From: Myxococcota bacterium
GTDB taxonomy: Bacteria; Myxococcota_A; UBA9042
NCBI GenBank assembly: GCA_964201005.1
Contig: CAXNCS010000007.1
Coordinates: 167-64,166, forward strand
Length of the DNA: 64,000 nt
Direction of reading: 5' to 3'
The notes below the pieces were generated by a model. The model worked only from the letters and a program-made list of their open reading frames with translations, searched no databases and was not told the origin of the DNA. Below are positions 24,433-49,001 of the stretch, in pieces; position 1 is the first letter of the stretch; every line of letters starts with the position of its first letter. Position numbers and translations under genes: made by a program.

Positions 24433-24617
24433 ATCGAGGGGGACCTTGTTGTAAGCTCGCTCGGAGCTTGGCGAATTCGCCGATTCTGTTCGGGAGGCTA
24501 GCAGCAGGGCATCGAGGGGGACCTGCATTGAGGGGGACCTGCATCGAGGGGGACCTTGTTGTAAGCCTGCTCAGAGCTTAGCGAATTCGCCGATTCTGCT
24601 CTGGAGACTAGCAACAG
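24433..24617. repeat. Nested repeats: ~75-bp direct repeat (24433-24507 and 24543-24617) plus 3 tandem 16-bp units GCATYGAGGGGGACCT (24509-24556)
   Basis: Direct alignment of the copies. The second long copy overlaps the arsM stop codon. Confidence 0.9.
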
Positions 24618-25408
24618 GAGCGCTTGGCCGGCTTGCGCGCCTCGATCGTCGCAGAAACGACGTAATTCTCCAGGCCTGAACCCGGGATCCAGTCGGCCAT
24701 AAACGCGCGGCTCTCTTCCTTGAGGTTGATGCGGATATCGCTGAACCCCGCGCGGGCCAGCAGGTCGCTGACGGTGTCCACGCTCGCGGCGCCGGAGACA
24801 CAGGCGGTAAAGGCGGCCATGTCCTGAGCCAGCGCCTCGGGCAGCTCCTGGGTGGTGACCACGTCCGAAATCGCCAGGCGCCCGCCGGGTTTCAGCACGC
24901 GGAAGGCGTCCAGGAACACCGCGCCCTTGTCTGGGCTCAGGTTGATGACGCAGTTGGAGAGGATGACGTCCACGCTGTTGTCGGCCACCGGCAGGTGCTC
25001 GATCTCGCCCAGGCGGAATTCGACATTGGCGGTACCCAGTTTGACGGCATTGGCCCGCGCCTTGCTCAGCATGTCCGGGGTCATATCCACGCCAATGACC
25101 CGGCCCGCGTCGCCGACCTGCTTGGCCGCCAAAAAGCAGTCAAAACCGCCGCCTGCGCCCAGGTCCAGCACGGTCTCGCCCGGCTTGAGCGCGGCGATCG
25201 CCTGGGGATTGCCGCAGCCCAGGCCCATGTTGGCGCCCTCCGGAACGGCCGCGAGATCCTCTTGGCTGTAGCCCAGTTGCAAGCTGACGTCGGCGTTGGG
25301 GCTGCAGCAACCGGGGGCGGCACAGCAGGAGGCGCTGTCGGCGCGGGCGACGCTGGCGTACTGATCGCGCACCGCGGCGCGCACAAAATCCTTGGTCTGT
25401 TCGTTCAT
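24608..25408 (-). CDS. arsM: Arsenite S-adenosylmethionine methyltransferase
   Basis: [41 protein letters not shown]- and C-terminal CC pairs. Confidence 0.92.
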
Positions 25409-25465
25409 CGTCGGGGCTCCTAATGGGCGTGGCCTGAGGGCTAGCGTTCGCGAGGTGCGATGAGC

Positions 25466-46412: not shown

Positions 46413-46436
46413 TCCTCGATCAACGCCGGAGTCCGC

Positions 46437-49001
46437 TTGACCTTTTCGCCGCTGCACCTGGTGCTTTTGCTGGCCGCGGCTCTTGCGGTGCCAGAGCTGT
46501 TGGTGCGCGGTCCGGACCAGCAGGTGGCGTTTCAGGCCATGCTGGTGCTGCAGCTGCTCGGGGTGATCGTTGCGGCCATCGGCGTGGCAGCGGCGTTTTC
46601 TACACTGGGCCTGGCCGCCGTGCAGTTTCTGAGCCGGCCGTGGCAGCGCCGCGCGGATACCTTTGTGGCCTGGTCGTTTTTGCGGGTGTCGCATACGGTC
46701 CTGCCGATGCCCTTGCGCCTTCAGCGCGGCTTGCAGACCCTGGTGCGCGCCGAGCCCGAACAGGCCGCCGATCCGCAGCTCGCTCGCCGGGCGATGCCCA
46801 AAAAGCTGTTGCAGGGCGCCGCTATGGTCGGGGTCGGCGCCGCAGTGGTGGCGTTTGCGGTGCCAGAAGGCGTGGAGCTGCGCTGGCTGGCATTGCGCAA
46901 TCTGGGCGCGGCCTTGGCGCTGGCCGGGCTTGTGCAGCTGCTGGCCGGTTTGCCGCGGCGCGGGCTGCGATCGGCGCTGGCCCAAGGCCTGGTGATCGCT
47001 GCGCTTGTCTCTGGGGCAGCGGCGGCGCGCCATCCGCAGATCCTGCCGTGGGTCGATCCTCTGCCGCTGGTGGCCGCGGCGCTTATGGGCTTGATGCTTG
47101 GGCTTTTTCGCCCCGGGTCGGCGGTGGGCATGGCCGGGCGGCTGGCGCGGCGCGGGCGCTGGACGGTGCTGCCGGCGCTGGTCCTGCTGGGCGCTTCTGT
47201 CGCGGCGCGGGTCGCGCTGGGCCCCCAACCATGGGTCGTCGCTGGTGTTTCTGCGCTGGCGGCCCTGGCCCTGGTGGCGCTCTACTTGCTGCTGCAGGGC
47301 CAAGCCAAGGTGACGGTGCCGGTGTTCGTGTCGATCGTCGGCGTGGCCGCGGGGACCTGGGCGCTGATCGTCGTCCTGAGCGTCATGGGCGGATTTGCGG
47401 CGGATTTGCGCGGCAAGATGCTGGTGGCCAACGCCCACGCCTTGGTCGAAGCGCCGGGGCGGGCGGCGCCTTTTGCCCACGCTGCGGCCCTTTCTGCGGC
47501 CTTGCGCCAACTGCCCGGTGTGGCCGCGGTGAGCCCGCAAGTGCGCGGCGATGCGATCCTGTCGTCGTCGTTTAACGTCAACAATTTTGTGGCTGTCCGC
47601 GGCATTGACCCGTCGCTGGCCGAAGTGCAGCGCGAGCTGGCCCCGACCATGCGCACCGGCGATCTCGCCTTGCTCAGCGATCCCGCGGCCATGGGCAGCG
47701 ATCGCGCCTTGCAGCGCCGCTCCGACGACGCGCCGACCGACGTGCCGCTGATGCCCGACATCACCCCGACCGCCGCCGAGCCCGCGGCCAAAGGCGCAGA
47801 GGACGCCGACGCCCTGCTCAAAGCCCTGGGCCAACTCCCGCCGGGGCCCAGCGAGCCCGCGGTGCCCGGATCGGTAAATTCGCAAAAACCTCATGCTACG
47901 GGCGAGGTTCTAGGGAGGTCCCCCCAGCCCAACCCCCGGGATTCTGCCGACGCGCCGGTGCTGCTGCTCCCCTCGGACGGCAAGGCCGTGGCGCCGTCGA
48001 GCGGTCGCGCCCCCCGCGTGTCGCCGCCTGCCGAGGCGCTTCCCCTGGGCGAGTCTGTCGATCTGGGCACCCACGACGCCGCCGCCGACGCCCGCCGCCA
48101 GCCTCGCGCCCCCGATGGGCCGGGCAAAGCGAGCAAGCCGGGCCTGTGGAGCCTGCTCGACGACCCGCCGACCGCCGCGCCCGAGTCCGCAGATGTGCCG
48201 GTGATCCCTGGGATTCTTCTGGGCGTTGAGCTTGCCCACACCCTGCAGGTGGAGCTGGGCGACAAGATCGAAGTGGTCACCCCGGACGGCGATGTCGGCC
48301 CCACCGGTCTGCGGCCGCGGGTGCGCAGTTTTCGCGTCGCCGGCACCTTTGAGACGGGGCTGTATGAAGCCGACTCAAAAGTGGCCTACGTGACCCTAGA
48401 AGAGGGTGCGCGCTACTTCAACCTCGCCGGCCAGGCCAATGTCTTGGAACTGCGCCTCACAGAACCGGAAACGCCTGATGCAGTGCTGGCCCAGGTGCGC
48501 TCCGCGTTGGCCCAAGGCGGCGCGGGAACGCTAGAAGTGGTCGATTGGCGCCAGCTCAACCGCTCGCTTTTCTCGGCGCTGGCCTTTGAGCGGTTGGTGA
48601 TCTTCTTGGTGTTGGGCCTGATCATCCTGGTCGCGGCCTTTGCCATCGTCTCCGCGCTGACCATGGTGATTCTGCAAAAGCACGACAGTATCGCGATGTT
48701 GCGGGCGATGGGCGCGGCGGCCAAAGAGGTGCGCTCGGCTTTTGTGCAGATGGGCGGGGTGATCGGCCTGATTGGCACCAGCGCCGGGGCGACCTTGGGC
48801 CTGGGCACCTGCTTGCTCATCCAGACCCTGGGCATCCAGTTGCCGGAAGCCTACTACGTCCGGACCTTGCCTGTGCGCCTGCAGGTGTCAGAAATCGCTA
48901 TTGTTATCGTGGCTTCGCTGGCGGTGTCGCTCATTGCGACGGTGATCCCCGCGCGCAGTGCCGGGCGGCTGGAGCCGCTGGAGGGCCTCAGGCATGGCTG
49001 A
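46437..49001 (+). CDS. lolE: Lipoprotein-releasing ABC transporter permease LolC/E with an extra N-terminal TM region and a Pro-rich insert
   Basis: SIVGVAAGTWALIVVLSVMGGF; FETGLYEADS; DWRQLNRSLFSAL; PARSAGRLEPLEGLR; directly precedes lolD and bamA. Confidence 0.88.
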   Translation: MTFSPLHLVLLLAAALAVPELLVRGPDQQVAFQAMLVLQLLGVIVAAIGVAAAFSTLGLAAVQFLSRPWQRRADTFVAWSFLRVSHTVLPMPLRLQRGLQTLVRAEPEQAADPQLARRAMPKKLLQGAAMVGVGAAVVAFAVPEGVELRWLALRNLGAALALAGLVQLLAGLPRRGLRSALAQGLVIAALVSGAAAARHPQILPWVDPLPLVAAALMGLMLGLFRPGSAVGMAGRLARRGRWTVLPALVLLGASVAARVALGPQPWVVAGVSALAALALVALYLLLQGQAKVTVPVFVSIVGVAAGTWALIVVLSVMGGFAADLRGKMLVANAHALVEAPGRAAPFAHAAALSAALRQLPGVAAVSPQVRGDAILSSSFNVNNFVAVRGIDPSLAEVQRELAPTMRTGDLALLSDPAAMGSDRALQRRSDDAPTDVPLMPDITPTAAEPAAKGAEDADALLKALGQLPPGPSEPAVPGSVNSQKPHATGEVLGRSPQPNPRDSADAPVLLLPSDGKAVAPSSGRAPRVSPPAEALPLGESVDLGTHDAAADARRQPRAPDGPGKASKPGLWSLLDDPPTAAPESADVPVIPGILLGVELAHTLQVELGDKIEVVTPDGDVGPTGLRPRVRSFRVAGTFETGLYEADSKVAYVTLEEGARYFNLAGQANVLELRLTEPETPDAVLAQVRSALAQGGAGTLEVVDWRQLNRSLFSALAFERLVIFLVLGLIILVAAFAIVSALTMVILQKHDSIAMLRAMGAAAKEVRSAFVQMGGVIGLIGTSAGATLGLGTCLLIQTLGIQLPEAYYVRTLPVRLQVSEIAIVIVASLAVSLIATVIPARSAGRLEPLEGLRHG

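Follow-up and report, generated by a model that had tools for sequence, protein, structure and literature searches.

The locus analysed here raises the question of what a short sequence stands for when it recurs, on either strand and often inside genes, around the gene of a putative HUH nuclease. The stretch in question, henceforth the window, covers 64,000 nucleotides (bases 167–64166 of contig CAXNCS010000007.1, abbreviated C7) of a Myxococcota assembly of 2.73 Mb (GCA_964201005.1; 97 contigs, 69% complete, 66% GC). A preliminary description, made from the letters of the window, had listed six exact copies of the 17-mer GGGGGACCTCCCTAGAA plus variants between about 24 and 48 kb, and had proposed for them a role as selected or locally written protein-binding sites, for example in a centromere- or Ter-like array or in a chromosomal domain marked by a domesticated HUH nuclease. 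Mismatch searches confirm these copies: the exact 17-mer occurs six times in the window (26668+, 30120+, 35028−, 35155−, 40319+ and 47908−), ten matches are found at up to three mismatches, as compared with 0.12 expected from shuffled sequences, and allowing up to five mismatches adds the variants at 24438, 24516, 24532, 24548, 31111, 31557, 32892, 39959, 40902 and 42690.

According to the interpretation favoured here, the sites are probably recognised, as their cognate sequences, by a subfamily of Y1 HUH proteins resembling REP-associated tyrosine transposases (RAYTs; REP, repetitive extragenic palindromic sequence), proteins and sites together making up a REPtron-like system. The association on which this interpretation is built—a RAYT-like subfamily with a cognate repeat family that varies from paralogue to paralogue and clusters locally—is established by the comparison of related genomes. 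The assembly containing the window is designated G000 and the genomes of its relatives G001, G004, G006, G007 and G009, positions being given as genome:contig:position. It should be noted that all the genomes compared are fragmented metagenome-assembled genomes, and that the counts of copies in genes and between genes rest on our own codon-usage gene caller, which is crude.

A two-part motif family shared by three genomes

In the entire assembly, the six exact 17-mers as well as all eight copies at up to two mismatches are located on contig C7. The 17-mer represents the local form of a broader, genome-wide family, the pattern of which consists of box 1, RGGGKGACCY-N6-AA, a variable spacer of 19 nucleotides (nt) and box 2, WWTTT, giving an element of approximately 47 bp. 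The sequence GGGKGACCY-N6-AA is present in 71 copies in G000, as opposed to none for the reversed control. The profile of 70 copies exhibits box 1 at −1..+16, a spacer of low information and box 2 (WWTTT) at +36..+40, with 97% A/T at +37; at least four of the five positions +36..+40 are A/T in 55 of the 70 copies, against 2/70 at a control offset. The A/T tract that had been described as beginning 19 bp past the 17-mer (18 bp at 26668) is thus found where it was placed and holds in the larger set too; outside C7, GGGGGACCT likewise has AA at +15/16 and, farther on, T-rich sequence at +36..39. Neither a palindrome nor a GTAG tag is present in the motif. The rarity of CTAG, a tetranucleotide within the 17-mer that had been expected to be scarce, is borne out by 2398 occurrences observed versus 3357 expected from a Markov model and 8577 from base composition.

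Concerning the taxonomic range, only three of the 41 genomes searched exceed the control level: G000 with 71 copies of the family, G009 with 160 and G001 with 133, the remaining 38 being at that level. The subtype GGGGGACCT...WWTTY is restricted to G000 and G009, and so is the 17-mer at up to one mismatch, with six copies in either genome, five of the six G009 copies being positional orthologues of those in the window. As to placement, 34 of the 71 G000 copies lie within genes in the sense direction, 17 within genes in the antisense direction and 20 between genes; a single frame, nGG GGG ACC (read as R/G-G-T), is used by 28 of the 34 sense copies. Metagenome contigs yielded 13 single matches to the exact 17-mer, all in unrelated DNA (GC 0.49–0.79) without similarity to G000, which were treated as chance.

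The comparison of G000 with G009 was based on 19 orthologous pairs, obtained from 23 sites on C7, C50 and C51 (for two no orthologue was found and for two the alignments did not span the site). Identity amounts to 164/171 (96%) in the box 1 core, 37/38 (97%) in the AA and 93/95 (98%) in box 2, as compared with 295/361 (82%) in the spacer, 1554/1812 (86%) in the 5' flank and 1625/1877 (87%) in the 3' flank. Both boxes being conserved and the spacer not, the pattern fits a selected two-part protein-binding site, as had been proposed from the window, and purifying selection evidently keeps both boxes at their fixed spacing. In the reverse direction, 13 of the 14 G009 copies in the loci compared are common to G000, the 14th being a variant, and neither recent gains nor recent losses between the two genomes were seen in these loci. 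From the shared copies it follows that the family is older than the split of these species and has been stable since. A change of A to G at box 1 position 6 (GGGGGACC to GGGGGGCC) is observed in the G009 orthologues of four copies, those at 24438, 31111, 39959 and 47908; its four-fold occurrence may point to changes in parallel, to copies having converted one another or to the sites co-evolving with the protein, slippage in the run of G being possible as well.

The HUH protein and its paralogues

The HUH gene (30297..31493, + strand) encodes a protein of 398 amino acids (aa), composed of a RAYT-like N-terminal domain (aa 1–155) and an uncharacterised C-terminal half. The Pfam family Y1_Tnp is matched with a score of 26.4 (cut-off 23), the C-terminal half has no match in Pfam, and a search of the Protein Data Bank (PDB) by sequence gave no match at E up to 1. 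The HUH residues H59 and H61 together with Tyr120 are invariant in the alignment of seven paralogues. The AlphaFold model, computed from only seven sequences, is confident for aa 1–155 and poor beyond; its top Foldseek match is 4er8_A, i.e. TnpA-REP bound to a REP hairpin (E 2.7e-5, TMt 0.65), followed by the transposases of ISDra2, IS608 and IS200, so that the predicted fold is closest to a REP-associated tyrosine transposase. The nearest Atlas clusters contain hypothetical proteins of 295–433 aa bearing Y1_Tnp, from Myxococcota and Acidobacteriota.

Each of the 11 genomes of the genus possesses from 1 to 13 HUH paralogues, the members of the subfamily proper (at least 50% identity) being found in G000, G009 and G001 only. 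An order-wide search at E <= 1e-40 matched four of 37 genomes, the fourth, G007, with just a 43%-identical paralogue. The G009 orthologue apart, even close paralogues are at most 53% identical. The HUH gene itself has been vertically inherited and occupies a fixed locus in G000 and G009.

The paralogues share a conserved leader (AAAACTWTTTTC ... TTTTTCNGNCAGCNGNCGATNAC), present at window positions 30200–30296 as well as on C29, C30, C41 and C62, with a GC hairpin before the start codon; within it, a 31-nt stretch (30230–30260) is 97% identical on other contigs. The leader may represent a common regulatory element.

Clusters of copies at the HUH loci

Four loci of the subfamily exhibit a common layout. 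The HUH gene of the window follows a sense copy at −177, contains another at aa 271 and has an inverted copy 79 nt past the stop codon; its orthologue at G009:C146 has them at −180, as an internal variant and at +76 nt. The paralogue at G001:C246 is preceded by a sense copy at −222 and contains one at aa 267, with no downstream inverted copy found there, and that at G001:C100 has an internal sense copy at aa 282 and an inverted one at +67 nt, with no upstream sense copy found. The upstream sense copy (−177 to −222) is therefore seen at three of the four loci, the downstream inverted copy (67–79 nt beyond the stop codon) also at three, and the internal sense copy (aa 267–282) at three by pattern search, the fourth having the variant.

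The layout is accompanied by clusters. The window has 13 full-pattern copies in 23.5 kb versus 0.61 expected; G001:C246 has nine full copies between 66.7 and 84.1 kb (17.4 kb) with box 1 of the type CCCTCGCRRAA; G001:C100 has nine full copies in 20 kb and three more in the next 20 kb; G009:C629 has five full copies in 10.1 kb, box 1 being of the type CCCACCCAGAA; and G009:C557 has nine core copies in 11 kb, of the type GGGTGACC. Altogether, five of the six independent close-subfamily loci are found within clusters of 10–20 kb, the 3' halves of box 1 being locus-specific, whereas control loci with paralogues that are 38–40% identical have 0, 0 and 1 full copies in 11–20 kb. The link between motif and HUH gene, suspected from the window, is in this way reproduced by close paralogues in two other genomes, and the enrichment of copies near HUH genes, at least 20-fold, speaks against the uniform spread that had been named as the alternative. 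The idea of one special chromosomal domain has, on the other hand, to be given up, the family being genome-wide (71–160 copies in three species) and five loci having each a cluster of their own.

The extent and polarity ascribed to the cluster in the window stand in part. All the exact 17-mers lie between about 24 and 48 kb, as described; the flanks are, however, not entirely empty, since a copy of the wider family is found at 63730+. Similarly, of the claim that copies point inward from both sides of about 31.3 kb, it is correct that the copies nearest to the HUH gene face it, with + orientation up to 31.1 kb and − orientation over 31.6–35.2 kb, but beyond 35.2 kb the orientation is mixed.

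These observations bear on the reading put forward originally, according to which the sites would serve the host in organising the chromosome—as a centromere, a Ter-like or a domain-marking array—bound by a domesticated HUH protein or by another one. It would agree with the origin of the copies by substitution (see below), with their location in genes, with the conservation of both boxes between species, with the copies nearest to the HUH gene facing that gene, and with the presence of 10–16 sites over about 20 kb beside the gene of the presumed binder, which recalls the clusters of parS around parAB. We nevertheless consider it decidedly unlikely in view of the at least five clusters, which differ from one another in their box 1 variants, and of the dispersed copies in addition; of the mixed orientation past the immediate flanks, which does not give two clean opposed groups; of the motif not being palindromic; and of the gene content of the window, where nothing ori-, ter-, par-, dnaA-, dif- or tus-like was found and phage genes are absent as well. 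A reading as parS in particular was rejected: parS is a palindromic 16-mer related to TGTTTCACGTGAAACA and located near parAB, whereas the motif is no palindrome and no ParA/ParB domains were found among the window genes. No canonical parS cluster was seen in the G000 assembly with consensus strings of parS, and a par system could therefore not be placed in G000.

Other repeats were noticed as well, some of them near more distant paralogues. A palindromic family, CAGACAGTAGC...GCTATTGTCTG followed by ATCCATGAT, is found at G000:C29:1085–1109 and G000:C30:30865–30889, roughly 100 nt upstream of the leader of the distant paralogues, and the distant G000 paralogues on C29, C30 and C41 all have a palindromic repeat in the corresponding place 5' of the gene; the tail motif of the family has 25 dispersed matches at up to two mismatches (e.g. 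C2:24892, C53:5541 and C28:1592). This family has the appearance of a classic REP class of the hairpin type, occurring in G000 beside the two-part motif. At G000:C62:13293–13381, just 5' of an HUH gene fragment at the contig end, GACCCTCGATCCCGAAG is directly repeated three times with at most one mismatch per unit, which may be another paralogue-specific repeat. An unrelated multi-copy repeat of about 139 nt at G000:C51:4155–4293 recurs with 84–99% identity on 12 or more contigs of G009 and in G001.

Origin of the copies inside genes

Nine copies in the window had been assigned to open reading frames, and the assignment is confirmed: they lie in the genes of the activase (26668 and 30120), the HUH protein (31111), the AlkB-like (32892), GT-C-like (39959, 40319 and 40902) and LolE-like (47908) proteins and the kinase (42690). 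Of eight coding sites examined against orthologues without the motif, six are free of gaps there. The activase anchors RF and QPCF stand 19 residues apart in all six genomes, the peptide at 26668 being RGTSLE in G000 and G009 and RADLHS, RASLES, RASLQS or RVNLQS in the others; the TTTTTG of this copy is made up of codons for the conserved C-F-L-G, which in G000 and G009 alone have become T-rich through synonymous changes. The GT-C-like gene at 40319 reads RGTSLE versus RMDRRQ in G001, RMDRRA in G006 and RLDAGT in G007, again without a gap at the site, and gap-free alignments were obtained also at the kinase site, at C51:16307 and for G001:C246:66711 against G000:C1. There are small 1-nt gaps on both sides of C50:1954 as aligned with G001, and the LolE site is ambiguous because its Pro-rich linker varies in length. 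At those coding sites of the window that allowed a comparison G001 is without the motif; the G001 copies themselves could be set against G000 by a spanning alignment in just one of 21 cases. An empty-site comparison could not be made for the HUH unit, the neighbours of the activase being different in G001, G004, G006 and G007.

The linkers in which the coding copies are situated are poorly conserved, and the copies employ rare codons (CTA, GAA, AGG, TTT and TTG) where the relatives have common ones. They replace sequence without changing its length, through base substitution at places where the peptide is tolerant, as the orthologue alignments demonstrate. The preliminary description, which had argued against simple insertion, is supported in this respect, the spacer being host sequence. 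Such an origin departs from the known behaviour of such repeats; it may have proceeded by stepwise selection, through biased conversion or as templated replacement.

A further reading takes the copies for ordinary small mobile elements—a miniature inverted-repeat transposable element (MITE), a REPIN or a Rickettsia palindromic element (RPE)—inserted whole and in frame within genes and subsequently diverged in their central part. RPEs lie in frame within genes as insertions that add length, and the bias of the sense copies towards one frame is comparable with theirs. Intergenic copies are, moreover, enriched (20/71 versus about 11.5% of intergenic bases), the copies at 24438, 24548 and 30120 share the spacer sequence GCTCGCTC...GAATTYGC, and tandem duplications exist. 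Against this stand the six gap-free coding sites and the constant distance of the activase anchors, the fact that both the spacer and box 2 of the copy at 26668 correspond to host codons of the orthologues (QPCFLG), in which only synonymous changes have produced TTTTTG, and the lack of terminal inverted repeats, of a hairpin and of a target duplication; insertion of whole elements is likewise considered decidedly unlikely.

Another reading is that of a signal for DNA uptake or recombination which molecular drive has multiplied, the HUH link being secondary. Uptake signal sequences (USS), such as those of Haemophilus, arise by substitution in genes, are biased in frame and possess phased A/T tracts; here, too, the copies originate by substitution, occur on both strands of genes, favour one frame and are restricted to one lineage, and the arrangement of core and A/T tract, some two helical turns apart, is reminiscent of USS. 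The genome-wide density of 0.026 copies per kb is, however, far under the approximately one per kb of USS and of DNA uptake sequences (DUS), and drive acting genome-wide would not predict strong clustering at HUH paralogues with locus-specific variants, which makes this possibility very improbable.

Just as improbable is a role of the motif as promoter or operator for a local regulon, in which box 1 would serve as the −35 or an activator site and box 2 would resemble a −10 element. In its favour, there are two boxes at fixed spacing, sense copies prevail (34 versus 17) and some copies lie just 5' of genes (30120 for HUH, 35028 for the aldehyde dehydrogenase, C38:23151, C46:11528 and C50:2074). 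However, only about seven of the 71 copies are 0–100 nt from a called gene start, for 51 of the 71 the nearest start on the same strand is over 300 nt away, many are antisense or deep within genes, the distances to gene starts have no peak, for which the reading was rejected, and a comparison by eye showed no match of the boxes to a sigma-70 or sigma-54 consensus. Three metatranscriptome runs, with 0.02–0.13 of the sampled words present and in short contigs, were uninformative at the motif sites.

Probable recognition by the RAYT-like protein

Recognition of the sites by the RAYT-like subfamily would account for the layout and the clusters in the following way. The HUH protein would bind box 1 and act on box 2 at a fixed distance, probably by nicking, in analogy to the left end of IS608. 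It would work mainly in cis, which would be the reason why sites pile up near its gene, and sequences close to the gene that nearly match would be converted, or selected, into full sites.

Several observations weigh against this interpretation. As regards the protein, its match to the NCBIfam model REP_Tyr_transpos (NF047646) reaches 32.9 bits, below the cut-off of 80, covering positions 4–144 of the 146 in the profile. To our knowledge, every Y1 enzyme characterised so far recognises a hairpin in single-stranded DNA, and we know of no route by which a Y1 enzyme would make sites by substitution. As regards the sites, no hairpin emerges in the spacer, with a mean folding energy of −3.90 versus −3.91 in shuffles, or in the whole element (−14.8 versus −13.8, standard error 0.47), and there is no covariation by mutual information between columns, complementarity being within |z| 2.1 of column shuffles; a hairpin or terminator reading of the motif was rejected on these four negative tests. 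Concerning distribution, 57 of the 71 G000 copies are on contigs without an HUH gene of the subfamily, although some HUH genes may be missing from G000 because the assembly is only 69% complete. The locus G009:C4, with a 51%-identical HUH protein, has no GGGKGACC copies in its 8.8 kb (G009:C4:1–8791). It has a hairpin-type repeat of its own, CCCCCCCTTACGTC, five times in these 8.8 kb, the copy upstream of the gene forming GACGTA-loop-TACGTC; this is a different cognate repeat, likewise locally clustered. Furthermore, G000, G001 and G009 form one clade, so that the co-occurrence of motif family and HUH subfamily amounts to a single evolutionary event, and the near-complete sharing of copies between G000 and G009 gives no sign of current activity.

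A bolder version, in which each long RAYT-like paralogue itself writes its own two-part site into near-matching sequence within about 15 kb, coding sequence included and length unchanged, is unlikely. The writing might proceed through short single strands freed at existing sites, which would be annealed and incorporated at the replication fork. If it were true, there would be chromosomal neighbourhoods marked in a paralogue-specific manner, and REP-like sequences would spread by templated conversion and not by insertion.

Copies along the window

The first copy of the window is intergenic, between the genes of the POT transporter and the methyltransferase. This family copy at 24438..24484 (+), GGGGGACCTTGTTGTAA with CGAATTCG as box 2, has an orthologous copy in G009; it is followed at 24516..24564 (+) by three tandem 16-bp units, GAGGGGGACCTGCATY / GGGGGACCTTGTTGTAA, the last of which opens a second full copy at 24548–24594. 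The copies at 24438 and 24548 belong to a 110-bp tandem duplication. The activase gene contains the exact 17-mer twice. At 26668..26713 (+), with the 18-nt spacer and TTTTTG, it lies in the interdomain linker, read R-G-T-S-L-E, the tract overlapping the C-F-L-G codons; at 30120..30166 (+) its TAG is the stop codon of the activase, 177 nt 5' of the HUH start codon.

Inside the HUH gene, the sense copy GGGGGACCTCCTCAGAA at 31111..31157 (+) is read R-G-T-S-S-E at aa 271. A copy is present at the matching place in the paralogues of G001:C100 and G001:C246, and the G009:C146 orthologue has the variant GGGGGGCCTCCTCAGAA. The inverted copy GGGGGACCTTCCTGCAA follows at 31527..31573 (−), its first base being 79–80 nt beyond the HUH stop codon. 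The variant GGGGGACCTGCCTGAAG, with box 2 TTAATTC, is located at 32862..32908 (−), antisense to the AlkB-like gene and within its 3' end. Two exact 17-mers, at 34998..35044 (−), which is intergenic and upstream of the aldehyde dehydrogenase gene, and at 35125..35171 (−), go back to one 127-bp tandem duplication (35028/35155), of which the latter copy is the second unit; it is specific to G000 and missing from G009.

Farther to the right, a wider-family copy, GGGTGACCCCATTGTAA, is antisense in the ABC1 kinase gene at 36743..36789 (+). Three copies fall into the GT-C-like gene: the variant GGGGGACCTGGCTAGAA at 39959..40005 (+), read G-G-T-W-L-E and partly ancestral coding sequence; the exact 17-mer at 40319..40365 (+), read R-G-T-S-L-E and arisen by substitution; and the wider-family copy GGGGGACCCACTTGTAA at 40872..40918 (−), antisense. 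The weak variant AGGGGGCCTTCCTAGAA in the Ser/Thr kinase gene (42690..42736, +) is without the GACC core and its codons largely follow the ancestral coding sequence, its membership of the family being doubtful. The last exact 17-mer, at 47878..47924 (−), is antisense in the Pro-rich linker of variable length of the LolE-like permease. The wider-family copy at 63730..63776 (+), of the GGGTGACC type and antisense in ruvC, lies outside the interval described originally.

Gene context

The gene content of the window is ordinary chromosomal. In its left part the genes for a POT transporter, a methyltransferase, a double BcrAD/DUF2229 activase, the Y1_Tnp protein, a DUF1993 protein and an AlkB-like oxygenase follow one another; the middle is occupied by those for an aldehyde dehydrogenase, OmpA, an ABC1 kinase, a GT-C-like membrane protein, a Ser/Thr kinase and tRNA-Pro, and the right part by those for a class II aminoacyl-tRNA synthetase, LolE/LolD-like proteins and BamA, with RuvABC further on. 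The tRNA-Pro(GGG) gene, at 44344–44418 between the kinase and aminoacyl-tRNA synthetase genes, is 92–97% identical across the genus and is the sole Rfam match of the window at the gathering threshold, no family being matched at the motif sites. Outside the cluster, the GC content drops to 0.55–0.59 over 4000–8000, versus about 0.65 elsewhere, and no gene was called from 4991 to 7771; very large open reading frames (1077–1700 aa) without Pfam match at E <= 0.001 are found at 3–4991, 7771–11004 and 13710–18676.

Comparison with known systems

The literature search returned no work on TnpAREP with non-palindromic repeats, and for RAYT in Myxococc* nothing relevant by title or abstract among the matches listed. 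The system described here bears on the spread of REP-type repeats and on the role of RAYT proteins. Among known signals, USS are about 40 times denser than the present motif and are not clustered around a gene.

Y1 subclasses with a large conserved C-terminal domain that are not associated with REPs are described in the abstract of Quentin et al. 2018 (PMC6006769). Compared with that abstract description, the present Y1 protein is likewise long and possesses an additional C-terminal region, but here a cognate repeat family is present.

The ends of IS200/IS605 insertion sequences offer a second parallel. According to the section of PMC3597680 dealing with the left end of IS608, a linker of 19 nt separates the recognition hairpin from the cleavage site there. 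Both cases, to the extent described in that section, combine a recognition element with a separate site of cleavage (in the present case a putative one) at a fixed distance across an arbitrary linker, the spacer of the motif being also 19 nt, and the transposase has the same fold. The recognition element of IS608 is, however, a hairpin, and its cleavage site is chosen through base pairing with a guide tetranucleotide. Furthermore, copies of these insertion sequences are near-identical whole elements, whereas here the paralogues are no more than 53% identical and no element-sized unit is repeated.

The closest likeness is to the REPtron. Common to both are the Y1 HUH fold, with TnpA-REP (4er8) as the best structural match, the gene flanked by cognate repeats in inverted orientation, the vertically inherited gene at a fixed locus and a repeat class of its own for each paralogue. 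The copy number, 71–160 per genome, is in the range of tens to hundreds as well, but 13 of the 71 G000 copies fall within 23.5 kb at the HUH gene and other paralogues have similar clusters. RAYT paralogues with their own repeat class were reportedly described in Pseudomonas by Bertels and Rainey in 2011. The natural pairs of protein and site found here, with differing variants of box 1, would be suitable for specificity-swap experiments, and the dated and polarised gains of sites allow conversion to be tested against selection. For annotation a caution follows, as conserved non-palindromic repeats in housekeeping genes can stem from a transposase-derived system.

REPs are characterised, in the relevant passages of PMC8266576, as palindromes of 20–50 nt preceded by GTAG, mostly intergenic and spread genome-wide. 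The present motif is without palindrome or GTAG and 51 of its 71 copies are in genes; its copies arose by substitution and concentrate within about 10–17 kb of the gene; and the protein, at 398 aa and with its extra C-terminal half, falls under the NCBI cut-off for RAYT. Since the palindrome, the GTAG tag and the extragenic position are all missing, the system appears to work like a REPtron while being a distinct variant and not a member. It retains the REPtron layout without the hairpin, mostly in genes, with no change of length and with clusters at the gene of each paralogue, and the link between a protein and its cognate sites becomes in this way separable from the model of palindrome and insertion.

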